Part shown: piece by piece, positions 25,109-61,049 of the stretch | How the letters are laid out: each line of letters starts with the position of its first letter | Numbering within the stretch: the stretch's first letter is position 1 | NCBI GenBank assembly: GCA_044892525.1 | Contig: CM097885.1 | Coordinates: forward strand, 4,776,001-4,840,000 | Direction of reading: 5' to 3' | Length of the DNA stretch: 64,000 nucleotides | Origin: Schmidtea polychroa | Lineage: Eukaryota | Notes under the pieces: model-generated | The model's database searches: none | Seen by the model: the letters and a program-made list of their open reading frames with translations, nothing else | What the model was told of the DNA's origin: nothing | Program-made: the position numbers and the translations under genes

Positions 25109-25111
25109 GAA

Positions 25112-25819: not shown

Positions 25820-25843
25820 AGATTCATTTTAAATTATTAATAA

Positions 25844-38820: not shown

Positions 38821-39071
38821 GTAATAATAATAATAATTATGAGGAAGTTTTATGATGAAGAAATTTTTAAATTGAAAATTTTAAAAATTAAAGTTTAGAT
38901 TAATTTTTAAAAAAACAAAATAAGAAGATATTTTAATTAAAAATATCTTCGTAGAAAATTTGTTTAAATAAGAAAGATTAAGGAAGATATAATTTGATTT
39001 TGATATTTATTGAAATAAAATTTATGGAAACAAAAACTGATTTTAATGTTTTACAGGATGAACCTCCTAAT

Positions 39072-40095
39072 ATGGTGGCAGCGGTAAACACGGACGCAAT
39101 CACCGAAAGATTGCTACCAAAGGTATTCTGCCAAGGGGACGATTTGGAAAAGTTCATTAAAAGATGCGAAATTTATTTCGACGCCAAGGGAATCACGCAG
39201 AAGAAAGACCAGGAAAGATTAACATCTTGCATGATTGATGAGGATCTCCTGGAAGTGTACGCCAAAACACTGAAAAAAGCCGAAGTATTCCAGGCTAGGT
39301 TGCGATTGGCATTCGATCGTGAAAGAGATGTTTTAAAGGATCTACAAAACTTGTTGAATTACAAGCGGAAGGGTGAAGGCGGAGGACCTTGTTGATAGGT
39401 TGTTCGAAAATAAAGAATTTACCAAAGAGAAATTAACAGCAAGGATGTTAATAGTATGTGCGGAGAATAAAGAAGTTGAGAAAGAAGTGATACTACGGAA
39501 GATAAAAAGCACAGAAGAAATAAAGGAAACACTAACTCTGATGGACAAAGTAGACAAGCAAAGAGAGCAGATAAACAGTATGAAAAGTTACGCCAGAGTG
39601 GTCTATCAGGAACCACAGGGAAGAGTACAATACAAGAAGAAAGAACAGAGAGAAGAAAGTATCCGAAGAGAAATGCCAGAATGCTGGTTATGCCACAAAA
39701 TAGGACACACGAAAATTGATTGTCCAATAAAAGGTAAAATAGAATGCTGGACATGTCATAGAAGCGGACATATAAGTAGAAACTGTCCAGATAAAAAAGC
39801 TCCAAGATGTTTTGGGTGTGGGAAAGAAGGTCATATAAGAAGATTGTGTCAGGAAATACGTTGTGAAAGATGTAGCAGAAATGGTCATAGATCCGAGGAG
39901 TGTTATACAAAGATTAGGTACGGGAGAGCGACGGAGAGACAAAGATTCACGGGAAACAGATACAGTCGGATAAATGGTATCGAGGAAGAAGAAGAAAGGG
40001 AATCGTGTGTAGAGACAAATGAAGATAATTTTAGGAAGACGTACCCAAACAACAGGGCTCCACCAGTAGAGGAGTTGGTTGGAGCCATATTCTAA
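39072..40095 (+). pseudogene. gag with four CCHC zinc knuckles; frameshift near 39370
   Basis: CWLCHKIGHTKIDC, CWTCHRSGHISRNC, CFGCGKEGHIRRLC, CERCSRNGHRSEEC. Confidence 0.88.
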
Positions 40096-40106
40096 CAGAA
40101 AATTTA

Positions 40107-43100
40107 ATGGGATATCCTCAAGGGGCAGAAAAGTGGGAGAATGTTGGAAGGGTAAGCGAGAAAGTATACAGGTTCCTAAAGAGAGAAATGTTTGAAGAGG
40201 AAGTGGAAAGAATTGGAACCATTGAAACGGAGCAGGTTGTTGAAATTTTGTATAACAGAATGCAAGGAAGGCCTAGTATAACAGTAAGGATGAATGGGGA
40301 AAATTTCGACTGTTTATTAGACACTGGAGCAAGAATCAATGTAATGAGTGTGAACTGTTTCAACAAGCTGTGAGGACAACAATTGACGAAAAGTGACGAT
40401 AAGTTACGATGCGCAAACGAGAGTACGATCGAGACAATAGGAAAAACGAAGGTGCAAGTAACCATTGGAAATGTTTCGAAGGAAGTTATATTCATTGTGG
40501 CGGAGAAAGTGACACCAGACGTGATTGGAGGAATCGAATTACAAGAAACATTTGGATTTAGACTGTTAAAAATTAAAGATATCGAGGCTAGTGAAAAAGA
40601 CAAGAACTATATTTGTAACATTGAAGCAAAATTTGGCAGAAAAATAAAGGATGAAAAACGATTGATACGAGCGTTGGAGCAGTTAAAGATCAATGAAGAT
40701 GGAAAATTAAAGGAAATTATAACAAACAGTGGAAACGTGTTTATGGCAGATAAATGGGATGTGGGTCGCACACATTTGGTAAAACACAAGATAGTTACAA
40801 GAGGTGAGCCGATAAACATAAAACCATATCGCCAACCACTAAATTTGGAATCAAAGATTGAAGAAGCAATACAAAATTTGTACGAAAATGGAATTATACG
40901 GAAATGTAACTCTCCATGGAATACACCGCTAATATGTGTATGGAAAAAAGAGAAAAGGATATTAGACTATGCTTGGACTTTAGACAGCTGAACGCGGTAA
41001 CAGAGAGGCAGGCATTTCCAATGCCAAACATAGACGAGATGTTGGATTTGTTAGGAGGATCCGTCTTTTTCAGCTCAATCGATCTAGGTAATGCATATTA
41101 CCAAGTGGAACTAGAAGAAGAATCACAGGAGAAAACAGCTTTCTCAACAAAGAACGGACAATATTGTTTCAACAGAATGCCGTTTGGAATTGCAGCAGCA
41201 CCAGGTACGTTCCAAGAAATGATGACAAAAGTATTAGGCAAAATAAAGGGAGCAATGGTGTATTTGGACGACATCTTGATTTATTCAAGCAGTAAAGAGA
41301 AACACTATACAATACTCAAAGAAGTGTTAAAGGCGATTGAGGAAGCAGGCCTAAGGATTAATCCAGAAAAATGCTAAATAATAAAGGAAGAAATCAGATT
41401 CTTAGGACACATAATCAGCAAGGAAGGAGTACAGACAGATCCATCTAAAATTCAGGCCATACAGAACTTTGGGAAGCCTAATTGCGTAAAGAAACTCCGA
41501 AGCTTTTTAGGTATTTGCAATTATTATAGAATATTCATCAGTGATTATGCAAAGAAGGGAAGGATGTTAGAACAATTATGTAGCGGACCAAGTAACAAAA
41601 AATTAGAATGGAGTGAAGGAACGAATAGCGTGTTTGAGGGATTGAAATTAGCACTCACGACGGCGCCAATCTTATGTTTTCCGGATCTGAAAAAGGAGTT
41701 CATTTTAGATACCGACGCTAGTTTCGATACCATTGGAGCAGTACTTTCACAAAGAGATAAAGATGGAAAGGAAAGAGTAATTGCGTATGGATCACACTCG
41801 ATGACGAGCCACGAGAAAGGATATTGTATTACAAGAAATGAACTATTGGCGGTATATTATTTTTGCATTCATTTTAAGCACTATCTCTACGGAAGAAGAT
41901 TCACGCTCAGGACAGACCACAAGGCAATCACGTTTATGATGACAACCAAGAAGCCGATTACTTCACAATTCCAAACATGGATCAATTATTTGAGCAGTTT
42001 AGATATAAGAGTAGAATACAGAAAGGGTATTAATCACCAAAATGCAGACATGGTGTCGAGAACTAAATGTGACACGTGTGTTCAATGGCAAATGGCCCAC
42101 GAAGAAGCTAAGAAAGGAAAGATAAAAACAAGATTACTAGACTCGATCAGAGAAGAGGGAAGAAGCAACATCCAACATGGAATTGTAGAAGAAGTACGAA
42201 AGAAAACGATGATACCTGAAAATGAGTTACAAGAAACAATAAAGGAAATACATAGACTATTGTGTCATGCTGGAGTCGAGAAGATAGCCGATTATATGAA
42301 AGATAGATATGTTGGAAAACACCTGTGGAGTAAGATTCAGGAGATTGTTCGAAGTTGTGAGATTTGTCAAAAAACCAAGGCTTTAACAATAACAACGAAA
42401 GAACCAGTAAAAAGACAAGATTCGAAGAAAATGTTCGAAATTATATTCGTAGATATATGTGGACCGTTGGCAGAAACAAAAGGACGTAAGAAGTATATAT
42501 TGGGCATAATAGATCATTATAGTAAGTATCAAGTCTTGACAGCGATAACAAAACAAGACGAAGAAACAATAAAGAAAACGATTTTAGAAAAGTGGATTTT
42601 AAGATTTGGATGCCCAAAGGAGATAAGAGTTGATTGCGGAAAGGCGTTTGAATCAGGAATGATGAGAGAATTCACATAGATGCTAGATATTAAATTATGT
42701 TTTTCGAGTCCATACCATCACCAAACAAACGGTCAGATAGAAAGACAATTCAGGACAATACGGGATTTGATAAATGCTACTTTACAGGATAGAAAGAAGA
42801 CGGATTGGGCAGAGATATTACTAGAAGTCGAATTCACTTTAAATGCAACCAAACAAAAAACGACAGGGAAAAGCCCGGCAGAGATAGTTTTTGGAAAAAA
42901 GATTAGCAGGGAAAAATGGTACGGGTCCAAAGAAATACCGATAAAGGAAGAACTAGAAGAACAAACAAGGAGAAAATTCAATGTAGGAGAAGAAGTATTA
43001 GTAAAAGTAGAAACACGCCACAAAGGCCAGGACAGGTATGAAGGTCCGTACAAAGTGATAGAGAAAGTGCATGACAGACGATACATCTTAAGAAATGAAG

Positions 43101-43162
43101 ATGGAAAAAGGATCGAAAGAAATGTGGAAAAACTTAAAAATTTCTTAAGAAGAGGGATATGA
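40107..43162 (+). pseudogene. pol (protease, RT, RNase H, integrase) with stops and a frameshift
   Basis: LLDTGA, RLCLDFRQLN, YLDD, TDAS, TDHK, HHCC, and integrase D..D..E. Stops at 40371-40373, 41375-41377 and 42677-42679; frameshift near 40950. Confidence 0.92.
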
Positions 43163-45442: not shown

Positions 45443-47707
45443 TATTATGTATAATGAAATAATAGTTCAATAAAATGGAATATTGCATTGTCATTTCTAT
45501 GGCATTATAAGCTCTTGCCCCTAATAAGCCATATAATAACACGTAAATAATATGTTGTGCCTATGTAAAATTAAATAAAAATATTTAACACAAAAACTCA
45601 AAAATAAAATAAAAATGCAAAATTAATTAACATTTTGAAAATTGGGACAGTTGTGATTTTGTGGAACAAATAATACTTATTGTGTTGAGCTACTTATTCT
45701 GATCGAGAACACGAGGAGTTTGATTATAAATTCTGTCCAACCAAATAATAGTATTAACTCCAATCAATTTAGATAGAGCCATAGCGTTGACAATGTATAT
45801 TACGGGGTATTGAGGCCTTGTAATATGTAGAATATGCAGTATCTGAATACATTTTTCTGTGAATTACTCACAATTACTTACCTTTACCCCCCCATGTGGA
45901 AGAGGTTGTCAGTTAAGGAGGTACATGAATAAAGAAAAGAGAAGTTCAGAGAAAAATCAAATAAGCCATTATGGGGCAACCCAAACTAAATTCTACGCAA
46001 GCTAATTAAACGTCATAAAAATAAATAATTATAAAAATCTAAAGATAGAAAAATTCCTCCAAAAAAATTTCTCAATAAATTAAATTGAGTGGGGATTTGT
46101 GTAATTTTTGACATATATTTATTTTTGAAACGAGCAATTTATACAATATCCGCTCGGTTTTTCACATATAGCCATATGAGCTGGAATAATTCCGGACCAG
46201 CAACATTTCCTGAACTAGGATTTCGTTTCATCGCCAGACTCAGTTAAATGCAACGCGTTGCCGAGCTATCCAAGATTTATATCTCGCGGGATTTTAATTA
46301 CTTTTAAAGCCGGTTATTATTTGCCGTTGAAATATTTTAATTTTTTTAACAACAGATTTTTCTCAACTGGGATTTCATTCATGATCATTTAGATGGGCTT
46401 TAATTCAGTTGTTCGGGAATGACTCTTCATATAAGTTGTCCAGGAATTGAGGGATGATAATTCTATTACTTTTTATTCACTTTCTCGACGGGAGTAGGGA
46501 GTTAGTGGCCCGCGGCAGCAATAGGGGGGGGGGGGTAAAAAATGTTGCAAACTTTTGATTGCATAACTTTTTCCGTAGACATTTTTTGATTACATAATTG
46601 TTGCCGTAATGCCCAATGTTTTCTGGGATTTTAAATACAAATTTTTTTTTTTTTTTTTTTTTTTTTCAATAAACAAGCCAAGGATAAATATTATTTGGGT
46701 GGGTCTCCTTGGTCCTGAGAATTTCAATAGAAAAAGGTAGTCTTCAATAAAAAAGCATGGATTTTTCACACTATAGTGAGGGGATCTTCTTGGTCATGAG
46801 AATTTCAATAGAAAAGGTGGTTTACATTAAAAAACGCATAGTAAATTTTTAAAATAAAGTAAATTATGGGTCTAAAATTTAAAAATAAAGTAAATGATGG
46901 GTCTAAAAATTTAAGTAAATCAAGGTTCAGATTTATTTTTGAAATAAAGTAAATTATGGTCTAAATAAGTAAATTATGGGCTAAGATTTTTCAATTAAAG
47001 TAAATAATGGTTCTAAAAAATTAAATTACAGTAAATTATGGTCCAAATTTTTAAATTAAAGTAAATTATGGTTCTTAAAAATTAAATTAAAGTAAATTAT
47101 GGTTCTTAAAAATTAAATTAAAGTAAATTATGGTTCTTAAAAATTAAATTAAAGTAAATTATGGTCAAAATTTTTGAATTACAGTCCAAAAATTTAAATT
47201 AAAGTAAATTATGATCCAAATTTTTAAATTAAAGTAAATAATGGTTCTAAAAAATTAAATTAAAGTAAATAATGGTCCAAATATTTTAAATTACAGTAAA
47301 TAATGGTTCTAAAAATTAAATTACAGTAAATAATGGTCAAAAATTTTAAAATTAAAGTAAATTATGGTTCTAAAAATTAAATTAAAGTTAATTAAGGTCC
47401 AAATTTTAAAATTAAATAATCAATGGTAAAAAAAAAATTTAAATTAAAGTTAAATAAGTAAATTAAAGTAATAATTTTTAAATAAGTAAATTAAAGTAAT
47501 GTAATAAGTAAATTAAAGTAAGATTTTTAAATTTATTAACAAAAATAGAAGGTGTTTGAGAATTGAAATTTTTTAATGGAAATTTTAATGAATTATTTTT
47601 TAAGTAATTTTTAATAGAAATTTTTATGAATAATTTTCAATGGTAATTTTTAATGGAAATTTTAATAGAATAATTTTTAAGATAATTTTTAATGAAAATT
47701 TTTATGA

Positions 47708-47781
<74 letters not shown>

Positions 47782-47968
47782 TAATATTAATAATATATCA
47801 ACCAAATACTATACAACACATAAAAAATTAACTAAACACATTAAAATAACTAGACACATAACGAAACATATAAACATTAACTAAACACATAAAAATGAAC
47901 TAGACACATAACAAACATAAAAATTTACCAAATAACAAATGTAAAGATATAAAATTTATTCAATAAAA

Positions 47969-50900
47969 TTAGTCCTCATCGGACAAAATAACGTCATCGA
48001 TATCGATGTCATCTTCTCCAAAATCTTCATTTAATTCTTCCTCATCTTCTCCATCATTTTCTCCAACATTTTCTGAAACATTTTCTGCAACAATTTCTCC
48101 AACATTTTCTCCAATATTTAATTCACTTAATCTTACATGCCCATATGCAAGACTAGTATTTTGCCCCACCCAAACCCTTTTGTCATCTTTGTTAGTTAGT
48201 GCTATTTTTGTGTTTTTAATTGTAAAAATTTGATGATTTTTGCTTGTTATTTTAGTCTGAGGAACCGAAAAAATCTGGTTAGTGTTATAACAATCCAGGT
48301 ATGACTGATGTTTTATGTCACTACCTTTCAATGTTACACCTTTAGCCTTTTTTGTTTCCTCATCACCCAACAAGCTATAACATTTAGGTCTAAGAAAAAC
48401 CCACTCCTTATATTTAAGACCTTTATTCTCGTCTTTGAACTTTCCAATGACTGAATCAAGGTTCTTACTATATAAGGAATGACAACTATTGTAATTGGAA
48501 GTATCCAATAAATTATCTCGAACCATTGCAGGTAAAAGAACCTTAAGTTTGCAGTTAATGACTTCGAGGAAAAAAGAATCTGTATCACCTGCAACGATAT
48601 TAATTTTACAATTAAACTCATTGCGAAATGATTCCAGATCCTTATATTGCAATTCATACATTCTAAGTTTAGATAGATCAAGTACAGATTGACCAATGTA
48701 ACTCGGTCTATCTAAACATATAGAATCGGAATTCAATAGTGCTGCAATTAAATTATCTGCTATTTTAATAGATTTTTTAAAAGTCGGTTTTGACGAATAT
48801 TTAACTAATTTACCGGCAGTTGTACAAAGACGAAGATTCATTCTTCTCTTTAAATTTTCAACTGTTTTGCCGTATAAACTATTATTTAGCAATTTATAAT
48901 AATTTTTATCTAAGCTATTTACGCTTTTTGATCTTAATTCAGTATTTGTATCTATATATTTTTTAAAAATTGGTGATTGCTTAAATCTTACACCCCTATT
49001 TACACGTGTTACTTTAACACCAAGTTCCAAATATAATTTTAATAATCTCCAATGAATAACATAATTAGATTTTGGAAGATGAGTTAATAATAATTTTTCA
49101 ACCTTAGACCCAGCAGGTTTCATTTTTTCAGCAGCTACAGGGAAATCATCCAACTTATCATGAAGCTCAGAAGGAATTACAAGATCAACTTCAAGTGTGT
49201 ATCCATAAGACAAAGATTCAAGATTTAAATTCCTACATTCATCCATTATTTTATCAAATCCATCAAGAACCCAACAAAATTCGCCACAAGGTAATGATTG
49301 ACTTAAAGCCCAGCCATAAAGATTATTAATATCTATATATAGTAACTCGGTGTTCTCGTCGGTTTTTACGTAATGCTTATTCACAAAAGTAAGACCGCCT
49401 CTTATTCCACCCTCATAAAAGCTAAACATTTCGTTTTCAGTTATGAGTTCAATTGGTTCATTTAAAGACATTAATGCAGAAGACCAAGACATGCCTGGAA
49501 TTCCGAAATAATTCAATGGTTCCAATCTATTGTGAGCAATGGATTTCAACCGAAACTGATGAAAGAAATCAGCCAAAAGAAAACAATCAAGTTTTAGGTA
49601 GATCATCATATAATCTAATAAAGTTACGCAATTAGTTTCTACCCAAATCTCCTGAGCTTTTTCATACTCAAGCTCAGTGACACCCTCCCAGATTGGTGGT
49701 AATTCATAAGTAGTTTGGAGAATATCTAAAGAAGTGGCGAAATTATAAGGGAAGATTCCTTTTTCACTTACTATGGTGCCAGAAAAAGCAGAATTAGTAA
49801 AAGGCAAAGAATTCAAAGTTTTGACTGCTTTAGCCAAAGAATCATTGACAAATTGATACGAATCAATGAATCTTAGGCTAATTTTACCTAAATGAGCAAT
49901 CAAAGATATAAATTTTTGCGTAGTTATTGGGATGCACCCTAAATTCCAATTTTTAAATTTATTTAATCCATATTTAAGTATATGGTGCATATCGTATCCC
50001 TTCAAGTTGTGAAATACGATAGGCAAAATTTTATTTATTTTTCTATTTACGTTACATGTGCTACAAGCTGCACCCAAGTATTTCCCCGTAAAATGATCGT
50101 GATCTCTAACAGGATCCACGATAGATTTCAAACAAAGATAACAAACCGTTGAATTAATGAATTGTTGTTGCTCAATTTTCGTTAATTTAATCATTGGTTT
50201 CCTACCCATTTTATAATAAAAAGGAAGAACCTTATTTAATGCTATATCCTCTATAGCACTTAAAAAACTCTCGACGCAATCTAAACCTATGAACTGCTGA
50301 TAAGATTTAGATCCGTCAAAGTTATTTACTAGTAAAAGACCAGCAGATATTGGCATGTGTCGCTGAAAATGATCATTATCAGAAGGTAAAATAGCCTCAA
50401 AATCGGCATAAACTACAAAAGGAGGAGTTACTGTTTTCGACCAGTCAGTAAACTGTAAGAATTTATTTTGAGGGAAAGTATAAAGAGTTGTTCCTAATTG
50501 ATTACGTTTGCATAATATTTCATGTTTTTCTAGAGCGTTTCTATTATTAAACCCATTCAAACACCGATGGCACCATAATGAACGTATGCATGTAGGACAA
50601 GTAGTGTTGATACCACAATTCAATAACCTATTTAAATTGCTTATAGCAACGTAATGGAAATTGTTCCCTTTATTTAATAATAGTAAATTAATTACAGTTC
50701 CATTTAAAACTTTGGAACGATGTATAATGTCTAAATGTGGGTGTTTTAAAACGTAATTATCTATTAATTGTTTGTTATTGTCATAAGAAAAAACGTTAAT
50801 TATTAAACCAGGATTTTTGGCCTCGAATTTTCTAATATCTTTTAATTTCATGGGTAAGTCCAATGGATTATATATTAATTCAGATAAATTATAACTGGAT

Positions 50901-51553
50901 CTCCTATTTCTAGCATAACTACTAACCTCATCATATTTTAAAATAGCTAAAATGCTATATAAAAAACATGAATCATCGGTGTTTTTTATATTAATTAAAC
51001 AATATTTATTTTTTAGATAAGTAGGTAGTTCAATGAAACTCCTACCACTTAATCTACTTAGCCTACTTATCTTTGTTATGGTGAAGTGAATTTCTGTTAT
51101 TTTTTTTTTTATGATCCAGCTACTTCCTAACTCTGTGATATTACTTATTTTCTCGTTTAGTTCCCTAATGCCTTCGTCAAAAAATGATGCAGTTAAAGGC
51201 TTTGCATAATTTGAGATATTATTAACCTTTATTTCCCCGTCTTTTTCAAATTCGATTGTTATTCCGAATTGAATTTTGACGGAGCCTAATTCGTTAATAA
51301 TATCTCGTAATTTTTTTATTAGTTGTTCAGGAAATATTATTTCTTTTATATTTAAGTCGCTTGTATTTAAGCTTAATATTTGATGGGTACCTCTTAGATC
51401 TTTTTGTATTATTGGAACATTTCCACCTATTTGTATTATATTTAATCCATCCCAAGAGTCAAGGGAAATATTATCTAATCCGACCTGGGATTCAACAACC
51501 AATCCATCATGGGATTCGACAACCAATCTATCATTGGATTCCACAAAAGGCAA
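47969..51553 (-). CDS. Protein-primed family B DNA polymerase (left-arm copy); true start probably upstream at 51753
   Basis: LINIKNTDDSCF, YADFEA, DHDHFTGKYLGAACSTCN, FHNLKGYD, YIDINNLYG, KLLNNSLYGK, GDTDS, KAKGV, acidic tail. Confidence 0.95.
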   Translation of the reverse strand: MPFVESNDRLVVESHDGLVVESQVGLDNISLDSWDGLNIIQIGGNVPIIQKDLRGTHQILSLNTSDLNIKEIIFPEQLIKKLRDIINELGSVKIQFGITIEFEKDGEIKVNNISNYAKPLTASFFDEGIRELNEKISNITELGSSWIIKKKITEIHFTITKISRLSRLSGRSFIELPTYLKNKYCLINIKNTDDSCFLYSILAILKYDEVSSYARNRRSSYNLSELIYNPLDLPMKLKDIRKFEAKNPGLIINVFSYDNNKQLIDNYVLKHPHLDIIHRSKVLNGTVINLLLLNKGNNFHYVAISNLNRLLNCGINTTCPTCIRSLWCHRCLNGFNNRNALEKHEILCKRNQLGTTLYTFPQNKFLQFTDWSKTVTPPFVVYADFEAILPSDNDHFQRHMPISAGLLLVNNFDGSKSYQQFIGLDCVESFLSAIEDIALNKVLPFYYKMGRKPMIKLTKIEQQQFINSTVCYLCLKSIVDPVRDHDHFTGKYLGAACSTCNVNRKINKILPIVFHNLKGYDMHHILKYGLNKFKNWNLGCIPITTQKFISLIAHLGKISLRFIDSYQFVNDSLAKAVKTLNSLPFTNSAFSGTIVSEKGIFPYNFATSLDILQTTYELPPIWEGVTELEYEKAQEIWVETNCVTLLDYMMIYLKLDCFLLADFFHQFRLKSIAHNRLEPLNYFGIPGMSWSSALMSLNEPIELITENEMFSFYEGGIRGGLTFVNKHYVKTDENTELLYIDINNLYGWALSQSLPCGEFCWVLDGFDKIMDECRNLNLESLSYGYTLEVDLVIPSELHDKLDDFPVAAEKMKPAGSKVEKLLLTHLPKSNYVIHWRLLKLYLELGVKVTRVNRGVRFKQSPIFKKYIDTNTELRSKSVNSLDKNYYKLLNNSLYGKTVENLKRRMNLRLCTTAGKLVKYSSKPTFKKSIKIADNLIAALLNSDSICLDRPSYIGQSVLDLSKLRMYELQYKDLESFRNEFNCKINIVAGDTDSFFLEVINCKLKVLLPAMVRDNLLDTSNYNSCHSLYSKNLDSVIGKFKDENKGLKYKEWVFLRPKCYSLLGDEETKKAKGVTLKGSDIKHQSYLDCYNTNQIFSVPQTKITSKNHQIFTIKNTKIALTNKDDKRVWVGQNTSLAYGHVRLSELNIGENVGEIVAENVSENVGENDGEDEEELNEDFGEDDIDIDDVILSDED

Positions 51554-52641
51554 TCCGACCTTGGATTCAAAAGAAGAAGTATCTAATTTAATTTTTTAAT
51601 TTTTATTATTTTTTTTTCTATAGTTGAGGGTCTTTTAAAAACACTATCTTTTTTAAAATTAAACCTATCTAAATGATTTTTATGTTTATTATAAAAAACG
51701 CTATATGTTACGGGGTCACTAGTCTTACATACGGGACATATTTTAAAACACATTTTGACGCTAAAGTTGACTTATTTAACATTTTCATAATAATTTAATA
51801 AAAATAATGTGATGAACCCACAAAGTAATATCATTTTTCATCAAATTACAAAACAGTAATAACGTTTTCATAAAATTGTAACAAAGTAATAACATATTTC
51901 AGATAAATTTCAACAAATTTGTAAAATATTTATCAAATTGTAACTAAAATAATAAAAATATTGCAACAAAGTAATAAAATAATAATGGTAATTAAGACAA
52001 ATCAATACATTATTTCGAAGACGGACAACAAATTAAAAAGAATATTGTAACTAAAATAATAAAAATATTGCAACAAAGTAATAAAATAATACAACATTTT
52101 AAACTCTAGATCAATCCATTTTATAGAAAATTAAATTTTATCTATATAATATATGAATAAATATCCAAGGAAATTACGTTAACGTATAATAAATACAAAT
52201 TTATCGTAAAAACATGTGTGTATTACACACAAAACAAGATACATAATTTCTAATCAATCCATTTTATAGAAAATTAAATTTTATCTATATATTATATGAA
52301 TAAAATCCTAAGAAAATTACGTTAACTGTATGAAAAATACAAATTTATCATAAAAACATGTGTGTATTACACACAACATACGAGACATAATTTTTAATCA
52401 AGCTATTTTATAGAAAATTAAATTTTATCTATATAATATATGAATAAAAATCCAAGAAAATTACGTTAACCGCGCGAAAAACTACAAATTTATTGTAAAA
52501 ACATGTGTGCATTACACACAAAGCATCAAACTGAAATTGTAATTGCGCCATGTTGTAGAGAATTAAATTCTGCCTATACATGGTTACACTTAAATCTCGA
52601 TCAGACATGTGAAAAGAGACATAAAAGATAAAAAACAGTAG

Positions 52642-53786
52642 AGTAGTATGATGTGGGCCCGCTCGGCCACATATACCCCCTCCCCCCGTGTGTAAAATAA
52701 TGTTAATAATAATATTTATATATCAGTATATAGATTTTGCACTGGGCTTTAAAATAAGTGTTTGATTAATAAATTCGGATGATGGAAACATTACTTTTGG
52801 GAAGAAAAAAAGTAGGTCACCGCTGGACCAATTAATTTAAAAAAATTACGTAATAGTTCTAAAAATATTAGGCATCATTCTAAAAGTATTTGGCATCGTT
52901 CTAAAAGTATGACGTAATCGTTCTAAAAATATTAGACACCATTCTAAAAATATTTGGCATCGTTCTAAAAATATTAGACATCGATTACGTAATAGTTCTA
53001 AAAATATTAGGCATCGTTCTAAAAATATTAGGCATCGTTCTAAAAATATTTGGCATCATTCTAAAATATTAGACATCATTCTAAAAATGTGATGAGTCAT
53101 TGTCTTTGTTCTAAAAATGTGATGAATCATCGTATGATAAAAATCTATATCTCATTAGAAAGTTCTTGCACAGAGCTTTAAAATAAGCTATCGATCAATA
53201 TAATATGTTGGCAGGAACATTAATTTTTGGGATGAAAAAAAGTGTGAGCCCGCCCGGCCAATTAATAATATTTTGGAAAATAATAATAATTTAACGTTGA
53301 AAAGATGGTGGTCATCAATTGTTAATAACATTAAAACTATTAAAGATATATATGATACCTATAGCTCATTCGAAAGGTCTTGGACTGAGCTTTAAGAATA
53401 GGTATCGTCCAATAAAATCTGTTGGCAGGAACATTAATTTTTGGGATGAAAAAAAGTGTGAGCCCGCCCGGCCAATTAATAATATTTTGGAAAATAATAA
53501 TAATTTAACGTTGAAAAGATGGTGGTCATCAATTGTTAATAACATTAAAACTATTAAAGATATATATGATACCTATAGCTCATTCGAAAGGTCTTGGACT
53601 GAGCTTTAAGATGAGGTATCGGTCAATAAAATCTGTTGGCAGGAACATTAATTTTTGGGATGAAAAAAAGTGTGAGCCCGCCCGGCCAATTAATTAAAAC
53701 AAAAAATTTAAAAAAAAATTTTTTTCCCGGGGGGGGGGAGGGGGGGAGGGGGTATATGTGGCCGGGGGAGCTCCAATCATACTACT
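52642..53786. repeat. Central segment of the palindrome, with AGTAGT...ACTACT ends, ~22-bp tandem repeats and ~213-bp tandem repeats
   Basis: 'gttctaaaaatattaggcatc' units at ~52856-53120; 'gttggcaggaacattaatttttgggatg' at 53208, 53421 and 53635. Confidence 0.8.
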
Positions 53787-54874
53787 CTACTGTTTTTTAT
53801 CTTTTATGTCTCTTTTCACATGTCTGATCGAGATTTAAGTGTAACCATGTATAGGCAGAATTTAATTCTCTACAACATGGCGCAATTACAATTTCAGTTT
53901 GATGCTTTGTGTGTAATGCACACATGTTTTTACAATAAATTTGTAGTTTTTCGCGCGGTTAACGTAATTTTCTTGGATTTTTATTCATATATTATATAGA
54001 TAAAATTTAATTTTCTATAAAATAGCTTGATTAAAAATTATGTCTCGTATGTTGTGTGTAATACACACATGTTTTTATGATAAATTTGTATTTTTCATAC
54101 AGTTAACGTAATTTTCTTAGGATTTTATTCATATAATATATAGATAAAATTTAATTTTCTATAAAATGGATTGATTAGAAATTATGTATCTTGTTTTGTG
54201 TGTAATACACACATGTTTTTACGATAAATTTGTATTTATTATACGTTAACGTAATTTCCTTGGATATTTATTCATATATTATATAGATAAAATTTAATTT
54301 TCTATAAAATGGATTGATCTAGAGTTTAAAATGTTGTATTATTTTATTACTTTGTTGCAATATTTTTATTATTTTAGTTACAATATTCTTTTTAATTTGT
54401 TGTCCGTCTTCGAAATAATGTATTGATTTGTCTTAATTACCATTATTATTTTATTACTTTGTTGCAATATTTTTATTATTTTAGTTACAATTTGATAAAT
54501 ATTTTACAAATTTGTTGAAATTTATCTGAAATATGTTATTACTTTGTTACAGTTTTATGAAAACGTTATTACTGTTTTGTAATTTGATGAAAAATGATAT
54601 TACTTTGTGGGTTCATCACATTATTTTTATTAAATTATTATGAAAATGTTAAATAAGTCAACTTTAGCGTCAAAATGTGTTTTAAAATATGTCCCGTATG
54701 TAAGACTAGTGACCCCGTAACATATAGCGTTTTTTATAATAAACATAAAAATCATTTAGATAGGTTTAATTTTAAAAAAGATAGTGTTTTTAAAAGACCC
54801 TCAACTATAGAAAAAAAAATAATAAAAATTAAAAAATTAAATTAGATACTTCTTCTTTTGAATCCAAGGTCGGA

Positions 54875-57800
54875 TTGCCTTTTGTGGAATCCAATGATGG
54901 ATTGGTTGTCGAATCCCATGATGGATTGGTTGTTGAATCCCAGGTCGGATTAGATAATATTTCCCTTGACTCTTGGGATGGATTAAATATAATACAAATA
55001 GGTGGAAATGTTCCAATAATACAAAAAGATCTAAGAGGTACCCATCAAATATTAAGCTTAAATACAAGCGACTTAAATATAAAAGAAATAATATTTCCTG
55101 AACAACTAATAAAAAAATTACGAGATATTATTAACGAATTAGGCTCCGTCAAAATTCAATTCGGAATAACAATCGAATTTGAAAAAGACGGGGAAATAAA
55201 GGTTAATAATATCTCAAATTATGCAAAGCCTTTAACTGCATCATTTTTTGACGAAGGCATTAGGGAACTAAACGAGAAAATAAGTAATATCACAGAGTTA
55301 GGAAGTAGCTGGATCATAAAAAAAAAAATAACAGAAATTCACTTCACCATAACAAAGATAAGTAGGCTAAGTAGATTAAGTGGTAGGAGTTTCATTGAAC
55401 TACCTACTTATCTAAAAAATAAATATTGTTTAATTAATATAAAAAACACCGATGATTCATGTTTTTTATATAGCATTTTAGCTATTTTAAAATATGATGA
55501 GGTTAGTAGTTATGCTAGAAATAGGAGATCCAGTTATAATTTATCTGAATTAATATATAATCCATTGGACTTACCCATGAAATTAAAAGATATTAGAAAA
55601 TTCGAGGCCAAAAATCCTGGTTTAATAATTAACGTTTTTTCTTATGACAATAACAAACAATTAATAGATAATTACGTTTTAAAACACCCACATTTAGACA
55701 TTATACATCGTTCCAAAGTTTTAAATGGAACTGTAATTAATTTACTATTATTAAATAAAGGGAACAATTTCCATTACGTTGCTATAAGCAATTTAAATAG
55801 GTTATTGAATTGTGGTATCAACACTACTTGTCCTACATGCATACGTTCATTATGGTGCCATCGGTGTTTGAATGGGTTTAATAATAGAAACGCTCTAGAA
55901 AAACATGAAATATTATGCAAACGTAATCAATTAGGAACAACTCTTTATACTTTCCCTCAAAATAAATTCTTACAGTTTACTGACTGGTCGAAAACAGTAA
56001 CTCCTCCTTTTGTAGTTTATGCCGATTTTGAGGCTATTTTACCTTCTGATAATGATCATTTTCAGCGACACATGCCAATATCTGCTGGTCTTTTACTAGT
56101 AAATAACTTTGACGGATCTAAATCTTATCAGCAGTTCATAGGTTTAGATTGCGTCGAGAGTTTTTTAAGTGCTATAGAGGATATAGCATTAAATAAGGTT
56201 CTTCCTTTTTATTATAAAATGGGTAGGAAACCAATGATTAAATTAACGAAAATTGAGCAACAACAATTCATTAATTCAACGGTTTGTTATCTTTGTTTGA
56301 AATCTATCGTGGATCCTGTTAGAGATCACGATCATTTTACGGGGAAATACTTGGGTGCAGCTTGTAGCACATGTAACGTAAATAGAAAAATAAATAAAAT
56401 TTTGCCTATCGTATTTCACAACTTGAAGGGATACGATATGCACCATATACTTAAATATGGATTAAATAAATTTAAAAATTGGAATTTAGGGTGCATCCCA
56501 ATAACTACGCAAAAATTTATATCTTTGATTGCTCATTTAGGTAAAATTAGCCTAAGATTCATTGATTCGTATCAATTTGTCAATGATTCTTTGGCTAAAG
56601 CAGTCAAAACTTTGAATTCTTTGCCTTTTACTAATTCTGCTTTTTCTGGCACCATAGTAAGTGAAAAAGGAATCTTCCCTTATAATTTCGCCACTTCTTT
56701 AGATATTCTCCAAACTACTTATGAATTACCACCAATCTGGGAGGGTGTCACTGAGCTTGAGTATGAAAAAGCTCAGGAGATTTGGGTAGAAACTAATTGT
56801 GTAACTTTATTAGATTATATGATGATCTACCTAAAACTTGATTGTTTTCTTTTGGCTGATTTCTTTCATCAGTTTCGGTTGAAATCCATTGCTCACAATA
56901 GATTGGAACCATTGAATTATTTCGGAATTCCAGGCATGTCTTGGTCTTCTGCATTAATGTCTTTAAATGAACCAATTGAACTCATAACTGAAAACGAAAT
57001 GTTTAGCTTTTATGAGGGTGGAATAAGAGGCGGTCTTACTTTTGTGAATAAGCATTACGTAAAAACCGACGAGAACACCGAGTTACTATATATAGATATT
57101 AATAATCTTTATGGCTGGGCTTTAAGTCAATCATTACCTTGTGGCGAATTTTGTTGGGTTCTTGATGGATTTGATAAAATAATGGATGAATGTAGGAATT
57201 TAAATCTTGAATCTTTGTCTTATGGATACATACTTGAAGTTGATCTTGTAATTCCTTCTGAGCTTCATGATAAGTTGGATGATTTCCCTGTAGCTGCTGA
57301 AAAAATGAAACCTGCTGGGTCTAAGGTTGAAAAATTATTATTAACTCATCTTCCAAAATCTAATTATGTTATTCATTGGAGATTATTAAAATTATATTTG
57401 GAACTTGGTGTTAAAGTAACACGTGTAAATAGGGGTGTAAGATTTAAGCAATCACCAATTTTTAAAAAATATATAGATACAAATACTGAATTAAGATCAA
57501 AAAGCGTAAATAGCTTAGATAAAAATTATTATAAATTGCTAAATAATAGTTTATACGGCAAAACAGTTGAAAATTTAAAGAGAAGAATGAATCTTCGTCT
57601 TTGTACAACTGCCGGTAAATTAGTTAAATATTCGTCAAAACCGACTTTTAAAAAATCTATTAAAATAGCAGATAATTTAATTGCAGCACTATTGAATTCC
57701 GATTCTATATGTTTAGATAGACCGAGTTACATTGGTCAATCTGTACTTGATCTATCTAAACTTAGAATGTATGAATTGCAATATAAGGATCTGGAATCAT

Positions 57801-58459
57801 TTCGCAATGAGTTTAATTGTAAAATTAATATCGTTGCAGGTGATACAGATTCTTTTTTCCTCGAAGTCATTAACTGCAAACTTAAGGTTCTTTTACCTGC
57901 AATGGTTCGAGATAATTTATTGGATACTTCCAATTACAATAGTTGTCATTCCTTATATAGTAAGAACCTTGATTCAGTCATTGGAAAGTTCAAAGACGAG
58001 AATAAAGGTCTTAAATATAAGGAGTGGGTTTTTCTTAGACCTAAATGTTATAGCTTGTTGGGTGATGAGGAAACAAAAAAGGCTAAAGGTGTAACATTGA
58101 AAGGTAGTGACATAAAACATCAGTCATACCTGGATTGTTATAACACTAACCAGATTTTTTCGGTTCCTCAGACTAAAATAACAAGCAAAAATCATCAAAT
58201 TTTTACAATTAAAAACACAAAAATAGCACTAACTAACAAAGATGACAAAAGGGTTTGGGTGGGGCAAAATACTAGTCTTGCATATGGGCATGTAAGATTA
58301 AGTGAATTAAATATTGGAGAAAATGTTGGAGAAATTGTTGCAGAAAATGTTTCAGAAAATGTTGGAGAAAATGATGGAGAAGATGAGGAAGAATTAAATG
58401 AAGATTTTGGAGAAGATGACATCGATATCGATGACGTTATTTTGTCCGATGAGGACTAA
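54875..58459 (+). CDS. Protein-primed family B DNA polymerase (right-arm copy); true start probably upstream at 54675
   Basis: Identical to the left copy except two residues noticed (NDRL/NDGL, GYTL/GYIL); catalytic motifs intact. Confidence 0.95.
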   Translation: MPFVESNDGLVVESHDGLVVESQVGLDNISLDSWDGLNIIQIGGNVPIIQKDLRGTHQILSLNTSDLNIKEIIFPEQLIKKLRDIINELGSVKIQFGITIEFEKDGEIKVNNISNYAKPLTASFFDEGIRELNEKISNITELGSSWIIKKKITEIHFTITKISRLSRLSGRSFIELPTYLKNKYCLINIKNTDDSCFLYSILAILKYDEVSSYARNRRSSYNLSELIYNPLDLPMKLKDIRKFEAKNPGLIINVFSYDNNKQLIDNYVLKHPHLDIIHRSKVLNGTVINLLLLNKGNNFHYVAISNLNRLLNCGINTTCPTCIRSLWCHRCLNGFNNRNALEKHEILCKRNQLGTTLYTFPQNKFLQFTDWSKTVTPPFVVYADFEAILPSDNDHFQRHMPISAGLLLVNNFDGSKSYQQFIGLDCVESFLSAIEDIALNKVLPFYYKMGRKPMIKLTKIEQQQFINSTVCYLCLKSIVDPVRDHDHFTGKYLGAACSTCNVNRKINKILPIVFHNLKGYDMHHILKYGLNKFKNWNLGCIPITTQKFISLIAHLGKISLRFIDSYQFVNDSLAKAVKTLNSLPFTNSAFSGTIVSEKGIFPYNFATSLDILQTTYELPPIWEGVTELEYEKAQEIWVETNCVTLLDYMMIYLKLDCFLLADFFHQFRLKSIAHNRLEPLNYFGIPGMSWSSALMSLNEPIELITENEMFSFYEGGIRGGLTFVNKHYVKTDENTELLYIDINNLYGWALSQSLPCGEFCWVLDGFDKIMDECRNLNLESLSYGYILEVDLVIPSELHDKLDDFPVAAEKMKPAGSKVEKLLLTHLPKSNYVIHWRLLKLYLELGVKVTRVNRGVRFKQSPIFKKYIDTNTELRSKSVNSLDKNYYKLLNNSLYGKTVENLKRRMNLRLCTTAGKLVKYSSKPTFKKSIKIADNLIAALLNSDSICLDRPSYIGQSVLDLSKLRMYELQYKDLESFRNEFNCKINIVAGDTDSFFLEVINCKLKVLLPAMVRDNLLDTSNYNSCHSLYSKNLDSVIGKFKDENKGLKYKEWVFLRPKCYSLLGDEETKKAKGVTLKGSDIKHQSYLDCYNTNQIFSVPQTKITSKNHQIFTIKNTKIALTNKDDKRVWVGQNTSLAYGHVRLSELNIGENVGEIVAENVSENVGENDGEDEEELNEDFGEDDIDIDDVILSDED

Positions 58460-58646
58460 TTTTATTGAATAAATTTTATATCTTTACATTTGTTATTTGG
58501 TAAATTTTTATGTTTGTTATGTGTCTAGTTCATTTTTATGTGTTTAGTTAATGTTTATATGTTTCGTTATGTGTCTAGTTATTTTAATGTGTTTAGTTAA
58601 TTTTTTATGTGTTGTATAGTATTTGGTTGATATATTATTAATATTA

Positions 58647-58714
<68 letters not shown>

Positions 58715-61049
58715 TCATAAAAATTTTCATTAAAAATTATCTTAAAAATTATTCTATTAAAATTTCCATTAAAAATTACCATTGAAAATTATTCATAAAA
58801 ATTTCTATTAAAAATTACTTAAAAAATAATTCATTAAAATTTCCATTAAAAAATTTCAATTCTCAAACACCTTCTATTTTTGTTAATAAATTTAAAAATC
58901 TTACTTTAATTTACTTATTACATTACTTTAATTTACTTATTTAAAAATTATTACTTTAATTTACTTATTTAACTTTAATTTAAATTTTTTTTTTACCATT
59001 GATTATTTAATTTTAAAATTTGGACCTTAATTAACTTTAATTTAATTTTTAGAACCATAATTTACTTTAATTTTAAAATTTTTGACCATTATTTACTGTA
59101 ATTTAAATTTTAGAACCATTATTTACTGTAATTTAAAATATTTGGACCATTATTTACTTTAATTTAATTTTTTAGAACCATTATTTACTTTAATTTAAAA
59201 ATTTGGATCATAATTTACTTTAATTTAAATTTTTGGACTGTAATTCAAAAATTTTGACCATAATTTACTTTAATTTAATTTTTAAGAACCATAATTTACT
59301 TTAATTTAATTTTTAAGAACCATAATTTACTTTAATTTAAAAATTTGGACCATAATTTACTGTAATTTAATTTTTTAGAACCATTATTTACTTTAATTGA
59401 AAAATCTTAGCCCATAATTTACTTATTTAGACCATAATTTACTTTATTTCAAAAATAAATCTGAACCTTGATTTACTTAAATTTTTAGACCCATCATTTA
59501 CTTTATTTTTAAATTTTAGACCCATAATTTACTTTATTTTAAAAATTTACTATGCGTTTTTTAATGTAAACCACCTTTTCTATTGAAATTCTCATGACCA
59601 AGAAGATCCCCTCACTATAGTGTGAAAAATCCATGCTTTTTTATTGAAGACTACCTTTTTCTATTGAAATTCTCAGGACCAAGGAGACCCACCCAAATAA
59701 TATTTATCCTTGGCTTGTTTATTGAAAAAAAAAAAAAAAAAAAAAAAATTTGTATTTAAAATCCCAGAAAACATTGGGCATTACGGCAACAATTATGTAA
59801 TCAAAAAATGTCTACGGAAAAAGTTATGCAATCAAAAGTTTGCAACATTTTTTACCCCCCCCCCCCTATTGCTGCCGCGGGCCACTAACTCCCTACTGAC
59901 GGGGGACTTTTATATTTTATAAAATAGAGTTTCTTAACGGAGAATCTTTAATTTCTTTCGTGACGACGGGAATATATAAAAGTGGTTGTTGGAGGCATAC
60001 GTAAAAATGTTTATGTAGAAAATCCATAATTATTACTGTATAATATTATTTATTTTCTAGCATTACACACACAAACGTTTGGATTGCATATTGTAAATTG
60101 AACTCGTTTGAAATCGACTAATTGAAATTATCATTTACATATAACAGAAGCTGGAAACAGGAATAATTTTTTAAATTAAAAATAAAATCTCTCAAAATAA
60201 ATATGTTGGGATTTTATAAATTGATGAGAGATAAAAATGAAATGCACAAAGATAAAGTTATATTCAAAACAATTAAAAATCAATATTTCTCAGGGAAACA
60301 AAATGAGTAGGTAGCAAAACAAACACAGATATAATAATTTCAAATCGATTGGCGATTCTTGGGCTGTGTTATTTTAAAAGTTAATTAATTGATTGAAATT
60401 TTAATTAGGTCATAAATCATATCAGTTAGAAAAACAAAATTTTCAAGTTTGTCAAGCTTAAGTAAAAATAATTTAATTTGTTTTAATTCTCAGTCTTTAA
60501 AGGCTGATAAAATTTAATTATTTTTTAAGAATTTGGAAGATCACAAGATGAGAAATTGGTTTGATCATATGAAAGGAGCAGAATAGTCAGTATAGTTGTC
60601 AGTATAATTGTCAAAGAAAATTTTTTGCAAGTATAAAGTTAAAGAATAAAAGGTGTGCTAGACAAAGTTAAAGAGGAAAGTATTGTTGGTTGATTATTAT
60701 ATCAGATCAGAATGGTATTAGTTATTTGAGGAGGTTAATACTTGTGGTCATAGTGTTAATAGTGCTGTGTTGTGCATTTTCTTTTAATAAACATAGAGAA
60801 TTCTCGATTTCAGATTACGAGCTATTTTCCTGCCGATGCCAAAAAAATGTTTTTGAGTCAAAACTTTAAACCCTTAGTCCTCTGGCAGTTTCGTTCCCCT
60901 GAATAAATAAATGAGTTACAGTATTATAGCTACAAAATCCAAAGATCTATCATAAAAAAATACTTTCCCGCATTATTTACCACATCAGTTACTCTTAGCA
61001 GTAGATGTAAAATAATTTTAAAAATCAAATATTTTTAAATTACAATTTA

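Follow-up and report, generated by a model that had tools for sequence, protein, structure and literature searches.

Palindromic, polymerase-only Polinton derivatives with an asymmetric centre in the genome of Schmidtea polychroa

Polintons and other relatives of the element

Polintons are thought to be transposons and viruses alike, and we know of no observation of their replication. In the available passages of PMC10748475, their terminal inverted repeats (TIRs) are given as 100-1,500 bp and their target site duplication (TSD) as 5-8 bp, usually 6 bp. The definition printed in the accessible part of PMC5499653 asks for both a pDNAP and an RVE integrase. We analyzed a stretch of 64,000 nucleotides of contig CM097885.1 of Schmidtea polychroa, here called the window, which contains one copy of an element family that we named P; this insert spans positions 46493-59897 (13,405 bp). 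P resembles Polintons in its AG...CT ends, its terminal inverted repeats, its 6-bp TSD and the domain order of its PolB, in which an N-terminal Cys/His domain is followed by an HNH-type exonuclease insert and the polymerase motifs. It differs from them in lacking genes for an rve integrase, an ATPase, a protease and a capsid, and in having inverted repeats of 6-7 kb that enclose its sole gene, whereas the repeats of Polintons have the 100-1,500 bp given in the passages cited (PMC10748475); the preliminary description of this DNA had come close to that range with a norm of about 1 kb. Because it lacks an integrase, P is not itself a Polinton by the definition as printed in the part consulted (PMC5499653). 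P is a real new architectural variant of the non-autonomous Polinton, whose movement and replication we infer. A description of a palindromic, polymerase-only Polinton-like element was not found in full-text searches of the literature; Repbase and Dfam were outside this search.

Linear pPolB plasmids are extrachromosomal (cytoplasmic or mitochondrial) and carry a pPolB gene, and usually an RNA polymerase gene, between TIRs. The P copies, in contrast, are integrated with TSDs in nuclear chromosome-scale contigs. A mitochondrial or linear-plasmid origin was rejected, because the window contains no tRNA, rRNA or other Rfam matches and is located on a 271-Mb contig. Foldback (FB-type) transposons have long inverted arms of tandem repeats, a non-Polinton transposase and another TSD length. 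The P arms do hold subterminal tandem repeats, but the PolB gene and the Polinton-type ends and TSD led us to reject this class as well. In 1985, Kikuchi et al. reportedly found deletion derivatives of the yeast killer linear plasmid pGKL1 that were hairpins or palindromes. These resemble P in that a protein-primed linear replicon is said to have given rise to palindromic or hairpin forms retaining one end, but they are reportedly cytoplasmic, never integrate and have a true turn-around at their centre.

Daniell and Mullenbach are said to have described, in 1978, adenovirus incomplete-particle genomes as being of the snap-back type. In a snap-back or copy-back genome, one end is copied in reverse complement, which makes the molecule symmetric and gives it the same replication end on both sides (available part of PMC13506859). 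P shares with such defective viral genomes the symmetric form, the identical ends and the dependence on a complete relative, in its case for integration because the integrase is missing. It differs from them in being integrated and heritable, with about 300 chromosomal copies and a polymerase gene under selection, and in being no derivative of the complete Polinton family F described below (polymerases 47.5% identical over residues 31-400).

The rDNA palindrome of Tetrahymena is a fold-back inverted duplication at short inverted repeats. The occurrence of such duplications at short inverted repeats is also reported in the available passages of PMC10622511 and PMC10164571. P likewise has a spaced short inverted repeat exactly at the boundary between giant arm and unique centre, but the duplications treated in those passages are immobile chromosomal rearrangements, whereas the short repeats of P belong to a nested transposon, of which they form the ends. 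Teratorn, a piggyBac-herpesvirus fusion, has long inverted repeats and extra internal TIRs at the repeat/unique boundary according to the text available (PMC6431247), and P also has internal inverted termini that bound a unique region. Teratorn has, however, another transposase, belongs to another virus class, measures 41-182 kb and, in the same partial text, uses its internal TIRs in integration.

Structure of the window copy and its polymerase gene

The window copy is flanked by a perfect 6-bp TSD, GACGGG, located directly outside its left and right ends at 46487-46492 and 59898-59903, respectively. Its termini are AGTAG...CTACT, and the terminal sequences read AGTAGGGAGTTAGTGG... on the left and ...CCACTAACTCCCTACT on the right. 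The 35-nt outer terminus, AGTAGGGAGTTAGTGGCCCGCGGCAGCAATAGGGG, is present at 46493-46527 on the forward strand and at 59863-59897 on the reverse strand; both were identified by end reading and by the genome-wide pattern count given below. Self-alignment and BLAST delimited the left arm (46493-52687) and the right arm (53741-59897), of 6.2 kb each, which are 99-100% complementary in four collinear blocks (173, 495, 708 and 4974 nt) and 99.2% identical across 6,196 nt by BLAST. The end readings and the self-alignment thus confirmed the TSD, the termini and the inverted arms of about 6.2 kb reported previously. The insert had also been described as a palindrome, which is correct for the arms but not for the element as a whole, since a centre of 1053 nt (52688-53740) is unique and asymmetric.

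Outside the polymerase gene, the arms and centre of the window copy consist of tandem repeats. Subterminal non-coding repeats, with units of about 31 bp and others, are located at 46842-47927 (mirror copy 58501-59549), and 2.9 units of a 144-bp repeat are present upstream of the polymerase gene at 52105-52522 (mirror copy 53906-54323). Besides the polymerase frames, the window element has no ORF of at least 100 aa except for a 120-aa frame nested within each of them, and neither its ORF list nor Pfam gave an integrase, ATPase, protease or capsid gene, in agreement with the earlier statement that no other gene is recognisable. P encodes a Polinton-type pPolB only.

The two pPolB frames, at 47969-51553 on the reverse strand and at 54875-58459 on the forward strand (P0001), each have 1194 codons counted from a TTG, and their translations differ at two residues. 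From stop to stop the open frame has 1208 codons, with no ATG near its start. In other P copies the frame is longer, its beginning comprising an ATG and a C2H2-like finger, and this 5' part has been lost on both arms of the window copy; the uninterrupted 1194-codon frames reported before are therefore open but do not represent complete genes. Over its residues 171-1138, the P polymerase can be aligned with the PolB encoded by a complete Polinton located 14 kb away within the window (27% identity, E 1e-78). The domains PF03175 and PF02945 are present on homologues of the P polymerase, which itself retains every exonuclease and polymerase motif residue that does not vary among 17 relatives. When P0001 itself was searched, Pfam (E up to 10) returned no PolB family and only a weak Endonuclease_7 match, and the sequence search of PDB gave 0 matches. 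None of the runs on record as RNA holds P sequence. For run X11, guessed to be RNA, the apparent depth was higher in the gene than in its flanks, a depth that is not interpretable for short Logan contigs of a high-copy repeat.

Copies across the genome, their centres and their arms

We screened the 781-Mb assembly for the 35-nt end pattern, which was found 303 times in forward and 301 times in reverse orientation, versus 0 times for the reversed control pattern. Among the first 100 of these 604 ends listed, 86 could be joined into 43 (+,-) pairs, whose span has a median of 13.9 kb, and none of these 43 pairs corresponds to a monomeric parent with P-type ends. We read 16 elements of P, a single T, a single U, a diverged relative and 3 kb of an F element; ten centre junctions (one of them L047) fall outside the listed P pairs. 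All 16 P elements examined are palindromic, among them all six apparently unpaired polymerase matches that were followed up. Each of the ten P elements with both ends read has a perfect 6-bp TSD, all different. The approximately 300 copies are spread over all four chromosome-scale contigs with differing flanks and, at 300 x 13.9 kb, make up about 0.5% of the genome. These near-identical copies appear to be recent insertions. P sub-lineages differ in structure, and the window-type sub-lineage, which lacks the start codon, has inserted at least five times (W, A2, A3, A4 and N1), so a working gene in cis is not necessary for every copy.

Some long-read libraries produce long inverted repeats as an artefact. 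The probability that P is a fold-back chimera of assembly or sequencing is nevertheless negligible, because the copy census, with its differing flanks and perfect TSDs, and the structural differences between sub-lineages refute it. In addition, Logan contigs from four other public runs (three studies) cover 30 of 30 bins of the stretch searched, although they are short pieces of a high-copy repeat, none of which spans the stretch and whose depth, joints and loose ends are not interpretable. One such contig in run X5, of 1793 nt, leaves the stretch exactly at 59898 and continues for about 600 further letters. The expectation that other copies would be palindromic, each with its own TSD, was borne out, and the Polinton-type ends belong to a genuine mobile family rather than to a single rearrangement.

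The centre of P is not a turn-around point. In the window copy it contains 21-bp and 214-bp tandem repeats that all run in one direction, and across P copies it measures 0.4-1.6 kb, is non-palindromic and has direct repeats in one orientation. It is bounded by two inner termini, a "g-side" at 52642-52687 on the forward strand (AGTAGTATGATGTGGGCCC...ACATATACCCCCTCCCCCC, with CAGTAG just before it) and a "c-side" at 53741-53786 on the reverse strand (with CTACTG just after it). The junction CAGTAG|AGTAGTATGAT...CCCCCC ends both arms in 9 of 11 contiguous P elements and in the diverged relative L047, and in the termini that bound the centre, blocks of 16-37 nt are side-specific and common to several copies. 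Matches to the centre were found in the terminal repeats of T and U, two elements of a second Polinton family (U/F/T). The centre is a small non-coding derivative of that family, a mini-element with short inverted ends of its own. The sequences flanking the centre, CAGTAG and CTACTG, are reverse complements and not a direct 6-bp repeat, for which reason we rejected insertion of the nested element into a pre-existing perfect palindrome. Mirror-image flanks without a TSD point instead to fold-back duplication of a Polinton polymerase end at the nested repeat.

The arms, in turn, appear to be copied from one another. Across reference positions 470-6800, we detected no side-specific differences common to several P elements, and at 17 sites there are two alleles, each present on both arms of at least two elements. 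The 5' deletions of the polymerase gene are also carried by both arms. The 38 both-arm variants comprise 27 synonymous and 10 non-synonymous changes and one stop, i.e., a synonymous share of 71% versus 20% expected (p 2e-11), with 17 of the 27 synonymous variants coming from one diverged tract of element N5 in the first count. Variants on one arm only are also synonymous above the uniform expectation (22 of 51), and mutation bias therefore inflates the selection signal somewhat. That lineage variants are on both arms, and are mostly synonymous, shows that the arms evolve in concert and that the polymerase has been under past selection. The pattern is one of repeated copying between arms, the cause of which is considered below. 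Element N4 has different lineage alleles on its two arms, and P arms are thus not always identical; assembly polishing could overstate part of the arm-to-arm identity.

These data bear on the proposal, made in the preliminary description, that the insert may represent an inverted dimer formed during replication of a linear replicon, one of whose ends is protein-primed and the other a hairpin. Only this dimer would have the two ends needed to integrate; on such a model, each insertion would be a fresh dimer. Lineage variants and large 5' deletions that are always on both arms would fit such a dimer, as would the palindromic form of all copies examined and the lack of a monomer among the 43 end pairs from the first 100 ends listed. 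A hairpin turn-around would, however, give a symmetric centre, whereas that of P is non-palindromic, has one-orientation repeats and inherits side-specific blocks at its termini; the nested mini-element of another family accounts for both the flanks and the content of the centre, and the arms of N4 come from different lineages. We consider the dimer model quite unlikely, and the conserved centre of about 1 kb led us to abandon it.

Origin, propagation and companion Polinton families

The second family includes full-length members with an integrase, an ATPase, a capsid protein and their own polymerase gene, the last of these found in a member of 17.2 kb. T and U have ends AGTAGTAGGATG and 6-bp TSDs. 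For this family, the genome has at least 98 MCP copies, which are 100% identical, and at least 134 copies of the integrase, with 99-100% identity. A fold search confirmed the MCP fold of the 427-aa ORF of U, for which, as for the 360-aa ORF of U, Pfam had given nothing useful; the MCP profile had 0 matches to PDB sequences. MCP and ATPase genes were found in U and F, and a minor capsid protein and a protease are not among the genes found in them. Beyond AGTAG, the outer ends of P show no significant similarity to those of F and U or of the window Polinton (shuffle fractions 0.08-0.35). The possibility that P and U are the halves of one bipartite Polinton is weakened by these different outer ends and by the polymerase of the full-length members of the U family.

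We regard it as probable that P is a set of about 300 polymerase-only Polinton/Maverick derivatives that arose by fold-back, replicate with their own PolB, are integrated in trans and have mutually copied arms. At its origin, a polymerase-bearing Polinton end would have been copied back upon itself. Upstream of the polymerase gene would have lain a small nested non-coding element, whose short inverted ends primed this fold-back or snap-back. The resulting element would have two identical ends, two outward-reading polymerase genes and the nested element as unique centre, and the integrase, ATPase and capsid genes would have been lost. P probably replicates itself, its protein-primed PolB copying a linear form from the two identical ends. 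Since P has neither an integrase nor a capsid gene, integration must be supplied in trans, as the earlier proposal of a borrowed integrase had it. The enzyme responsible would be the rve integrase encoded by complete Polintons of this genome, which would generate the 6-bp duplication at the AGTAG ends, and the likely donor is the abundant family F, from whose end sequence the P centre is made. Maintenance of the arms may involve gene conversion, the repair of a single strand that has snapped back, or fold-back synthesis occurring anew; that they behave as mutually copied suggests that the fold-back replication step stays in play. The 5'-deleted window sub-lineage presumably spread by means of polymerase from other P copies.

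P could instead be a passive non-autonomous transposon, derived from a single chromosomal inverted duplication, in which the polymerase is dead cargo, complete Polintons perform replication and integration, and gene conversion evens the arms. Gene conversion between the arms of spaced palindromes is established, for example in sex-chromosome palindromes, and complete Polintons with polymerase and integrase are abundant. The five or more independent insertions of a sub-lineage without the gene start on either arm also fit passive transposition. A dead gene is, however, at odds with the synonymous excess in both-arm variants, with the retention of all catalytic residues and with the genome search, in which 37 of 39 scored polymerase matches are stop-free. 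Moreover, the outer ends of P are unlike those of the complete families, which fits an end-specific polymerase of its own. Passive transposition is thus an unlikely account.

With fold-back origin and self-replication as the preferred reading, two defining Polinton activities would be separated in P: the self-priming polymerase has been kept under selection, and integrase and capsid have been discarded, so that one can ask directly what each step depends on. The gene-bearing concerted arms of 6-7 kb around a stable asymmetric centre would constitute a chromosomal record of strand-switching in protein-primed replication, a step for which, to our knowledge, defective adenovirus genomes and yeast linear plasmids had been the only examples. 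In addition, 13-kb palindromes present in the hundreds could make the genome unstable and lead to assembly errors.

A more specific reading, which we put forward tentatively and do not favour, is that P is a polymerase-carrying satellite of F, a "virophage of a polintovirus", whose ends are replicated by an end-specific polymerase of its own, while the integrase of F inserts it and F may also package and transmit it by means of its capsid. The giant palindrome would then be no frozen accident: whenever protein-primed replication takes place, fold-back at the inverted ends of the nested mini-element derived from F would renew it, which would explain why the arms evolve in concert and the centre does not. 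If P is such a satellite, the same process would yield complementary defective forms, such as the polymerase-less palindrome U, and a population of partial genomes complementing one another. Element U is a palindromic, polymerase-less derivative with arms of 5.4 kb whose boundary lies inside the integrase gene, and its structure indicates that an end duplication as in P arose independently in the second family.

Architecture of the palindromic insertion and its polymerase gene

The window lies on a 271-Mb contig of the 781-Mb assembly, has a G+C content of about 28%, and gave no matches in tRNA and Rfam searches. At 46493-59897 it contains an insertion of 13,405 bp with AGTAG...CTACT ends, directly flanked on both sides by the target site duplication (TSD) GACGGG. 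The terminus reads AGTAGGGAGTTAGTGG... at one end, and its complement is present at the other. The two arms, 46493-52687 and 53741-59897, are mutually reverse-complementary: a repeat search returned four collinear blocks at 99-100%, and BLAST gave 99.2% identity between the arms over 6,196 nt. Each arm contains a pPolB frame of 1194 codons, located at 47969-51553 on the minus strand in the left arm and at 54875-58459 on the plus strand in the right arm. The 5' ends of both frames point to the centre, and their translations differ at 2 residues. The arm sequence outside the gene is non-coding tandem repeat, with units of about 31 bp between the gene and the outer end and units of 144 bp upstream of the gene, and the middle of the element (52688-53740, 1053 nt) is unique and asymmetric. 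These data confirm the preliminary description of a 13.4-kb insert with giant inverted arms, a pPolB frame in each and a 6-bp TSD, and also its statement that the element contains no integrase or capsid gene.

Pfam assigned no polymerase family to the protein of the right-arm frame (P0001), its single match, to Endonuclease_7 at residues 467-502, being weak, and a PDB sequence search found nothing. Its identification as PolB is based instead on three other lines of evidence. First, P0001 has at least 3,812 database relatives at E ≤0.001, the best being 64% identical, and many of these bear precomputed PF03175 and PF02945 annotations. Second, residues 171-1138 align (E 1e-78, 27% identity) to the PolB, 1386 aa long, that a complete Polinton of the window encodes. 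Third, P0001 keeps every column that does not vary among 17 aligned proteins of this kind (29-58% identity). As we read this alignment, the conserved positions include putative exonuclease residues (D384/E386, N516/Y520/D521 and Y652/D656), an HNH-type insert (H485/H487/C500), polymerase residues (D741/Y746, K887/N891/G895/K896 and D990-S993) and residues of an N-terminal domain (C196/H300). An HNH domain is reported for a class of nematode Polinton PolB in PMC10748475.

In many copies of the family, here named P, the frame extends about 100 codons further, with an ATG at its start and a C2H2-like finger after it. About 0.9 kb is missing from the 5' end of the gene in the window copy and in four other independent insertions (A2, A3, A4 and N1), and about 0.7 kb in a second sub-lineage; each deletion is present on both arms. 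These copies have a long frame without a start codon, yet they have spread, presumably complemented by other P copies.

Copies of the family in the assembly and in other sequencing runs

When the whole assembly was searched with P0001, 39 scored matches were obtained. All matches are 99-100% identical and 37 of them are stop-free. Fourteen minus/plus pairs account for 28 matches; six of the 11 seemingly single ones were followed up, and the partner arm was present in all six. A 35-nt pattern of the P ends occurs 303 times in forward and 301 times in reverse orientation, and its reversed control was not found. The first 100 ends in the list comprise 43 plus/minus pairs (86 ends) and 14 unpaired ends; the pairs span 8.7-16.3 kb, with one of 38 kb and a median of 13.9 kb.

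The preliminary description asked whether other copies are palindromic with their own TSD, and they are: all 16 P elements examined are palindromic, and each of the 10 read at both ends (the remaining six were read at one end only) has a perfect and different 6-bp TSD (GACGGG, CATATG, ATGTCG, TATTAT, ATAAAT, TAATAA, GGCATG, AATATA, GTCATA and TATCAT). Contigs from four other public runs, belonging to three studies, cover every bin of the compared stretch. A fold-back artefact or assembly chimera is excluded by the numerous ends, the different TSDs and this independent coverage.

Some loci are duplicated. C882 duplicates the locus at C1:228.14 Mb, and loci L007 and L008 have a common flank. Like C882 and its counterpart, the pairs C3:106414026 and C3:106977988, and C1:132.35 and 132.91 Mb, have identical flanks or structure and are probably haplotigs or segmental duplications. 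Such duplicates inflate the copy counts slightly, and the copy number of P is therefore approximate.

Contigs of run X2, which carries another organism label, match the P polymerase gene with 0-1 differences per 170-400 nt, and near-identical P copies therefore occur under a second organism label. A 1793-nt contig of run X5 aligns to the right flank (59898-60000), the flank that the compared stretch included. Its match stops precisely where the right TSD copy begins, and about 600 more letters have no match on the P element. This contig may represent an empty-site allele in another sample.

Complete Polintons and possible helpers

The complete Polinton of the window is located at 11660-32352 and has TIRs of about 735 bp and the TSD GGTTAG. 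Its ends, AGTAGTGTG.../...CACAGTACT, differ by one mismatch. It encodes an rve integrase (12644-13582, plus strand), an A32-like ATPase (13594-14406, minus strand), unassigned ORFs at 24009-27103, and the 1386-aa PolB (27182-31342, minus strand), which begins with a C2H2 finger. Nested long inverted repeats of up to 799 nt and 98% identity are present inside this Polinton at 15411-23656, which looks like a non-coding insertion of the fold-back type. Elsewhere in the window, pieces of a Gypsy-type LTR retroelement (zf-CCHC, RT RNase H, integrase zinc-binding and rve) are found at 38994-43162, and an RT fragment at 1780-2367.

A second Polinton family contains full-length (F), palindromic polymerase-less (U) and non-coding (T) members. 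U (L044+L045, G000:C2:116839500-116856300; positions 1246-15634 of the joined stretch) is 14.4 kb long with the TSD TTCGTT. Its 5.4-kb arms encode a TBP-like protein (PF00352, E 2.8e-15), an A32-like ATPase and an rve integrase that is 33% identical to that of the window Polinton. The 3.6-kb centre contains 120-aa and 360-aa ORFs and the gene of a 427-aa protein, which a fold search identified as a double jelly-roll capsid protein, in agreement with an ESM Atlas lead. The arm boundary lies within the last codons of the integrase gene, beside a microsatellite. U, a palindrome without a polymerase, is the mirror case of P, with the other end duplicated. T (L036+L037, G000:C1:108640500-108652200) is 8.8 kb long and non-coding, with 2.5-kb TIRs and the TSD TTGGAA; its 3.8-kb middle contains no ORF of at least 120 aa except a repeat-derived frame.

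At least 98 copies of this family's capsid gene are present, every one of them intact and 100% identical, and the integrase gene has at least 134 copies (99-100% identical), mostly single and 2.4 kb upstream of the capsid gene. The end pattern of the family gave 90+84 matches, whose pairs are separated by 5.8-21 kb. One F member (C1:195288713-195305904, 17.2 kb) has the family ends on both sides, the integrase and the capsid gene, and 3 kb read within it (L048, G000:C1:195298300-195301300) contain the beginning of a polymerase gene that is oriented toward the right end. Therefore, F includes complete, very recently active Polintons. The F polymerase has the same N-terminal finger, and its N-terminal region contains a long run of NNTKPV-like repeats. 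It is 47.5% identical to P0001 over residues 31-400, and the possibility that P is a deletion of F was therefore rejected; by sequence comparison, P comes from a related lineage that has ends and a polymerase of its own. In other assemblies, the longest contigs of relatives of the P polymerase and those of relatives of the U/F capsid agree in six sizes (14,316, 15,324, 16,321, 17,960, 18,985 and 22,064), which suggests that the two gene types reside on one element elsewhere.

Nested centre, proposed fold-back and concerted arms

In nine of the 11 contiguous P elements both arms finish with ...AACAGTAG|AGTAGTATGAT, a GC-rich block of 16-37 nt, and then CACATATACCCCCTCCCCCC. The centre is asymmetric in every case, gtgtgtaaaataatg starting one side and ccgggaaaaaatttt the other. 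The centre repeats and the bounding termini match the terminal repeats of elements ending AGTAGTAGGATGTG...CACATATACCCC (T and U), which marks the centre as a small derivative of this family that carries short inverted ends of its own. It is flanked by CAGTAG and CTACTG, which are reverse complements. An insertion would leave a direct repeat, whereas mirror flanks are what fold-back predicts. We infer that P arose by fold-back at nested inverted ends. The inverted dimer around a loop end proposed in the preliminary description was rejected in view of the asymmetric centre. In the fold-back, once a strand had copied the gene end together with the left flank and the entire mini-element, the newly made right end of the mini-element would pair with its left end, and the strand would copy itself back outward. 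Inverted duplications primed by short inverted repeats are an established mechanism, and snap-back genomes a recognised class of defective viral genome, according to PMC10622511 and PMC10164571, and to PMC13506859, respectively.

S and I, the two exceptions, have other arm boundaries. The centre of S is 259 nt and one arm is 245 nt longer than the other, which fits a second fold-back or a central deletion. Locus L047 (G000:C1:10209300-10212700) is a P-like palindrome, 88% identical in the upstream region, with the same junction and nested centre, showing that the architecture predates the present burst. The start of its polymerase gene is not alignable with P0001, which suggests module exchange between lineages.

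The other part of the earlier proposal, a self-replicating element that borrows an integrase, agrees with our view. A linear form of P would be replicated by its own end-specific polymerase, and a borrowed rve integrase would insert it, probably needing little beyond the shared AGTAG end, since the outer ends of P have no significant likeness to the compared Polinton ends beyond this motif. P thus works as a non-autonomous Polinton. It lacks the integrase and the morphogenesis genes, both of which define Polintons, and its repeats contain its only gene and are several times the range printed in PMC10748475. P looks like an integrated, amplified version of the snap-back genome of a protein-primed virus.

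Adenovirus incomplete-particle genomes, pGKL1 hairpin plasmids and the Tetrahymena rDNA palindrome are further systems for comparison. Full-text searches of the openly accessible literature turned up no account in print of a palindromic Polinton derivative that encodes a polymerase only, and term searches of PMC5499653, PMC6431247, PMC11161782 and PMC10748475 gave no such element. P is a new architecture among Polinton derivatives, and bears on Polinton replication and on the origin and persistence of defective forms.

To compare the arms, these were labelled by the adjoining side of the centre. Arm differences recur in two or more P elements at three places only: the GC-rich block within the inner termini, a homopolymer close to the outer end, and the zone of 144-bp repeats, with its ambiguous alignment and inconsistent orientation. 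Between reference positions 470 and 6800, which include the gene, no recurrent arm-specific differences were found. This region has 17 two-allele sites, each allele being carried by both arms in two or more elements; three of these sites are mixed in one or two elements (E, S, N4). Hence, a mutation or deletion that arises in one arm is either lost or copied to the partner arm, and the centre and the heterologous part of the termini are not homogenised.

With the window copy as the sole reference, gene variants on both arms comprise 27 synonymous, 10 non-synonymous and one stop. Thus, 71% are synonymous, compared to 20% for random single changes (p 2e-11), although 17 of these 27 synonymous changes, as listed when the count was first run, lie in one diverged tract of N5. 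Variants on one arm only comprise 22 synonymous and 29 non-synonymous; this class also exceeds 20% synonymous, so mutation bias contributes to the excess. With this bias, the N5 tract and the mixed ancestry of the N4 arms as caveats, the variant patterns indicate that the arms evolve in concert and that the gene is under selection. Three processes could each account for the concerted change of the arms, namely chromosomal gene conversion, repair of a displaced strand that has snapped back, and fold-back synthesis taking place anew.
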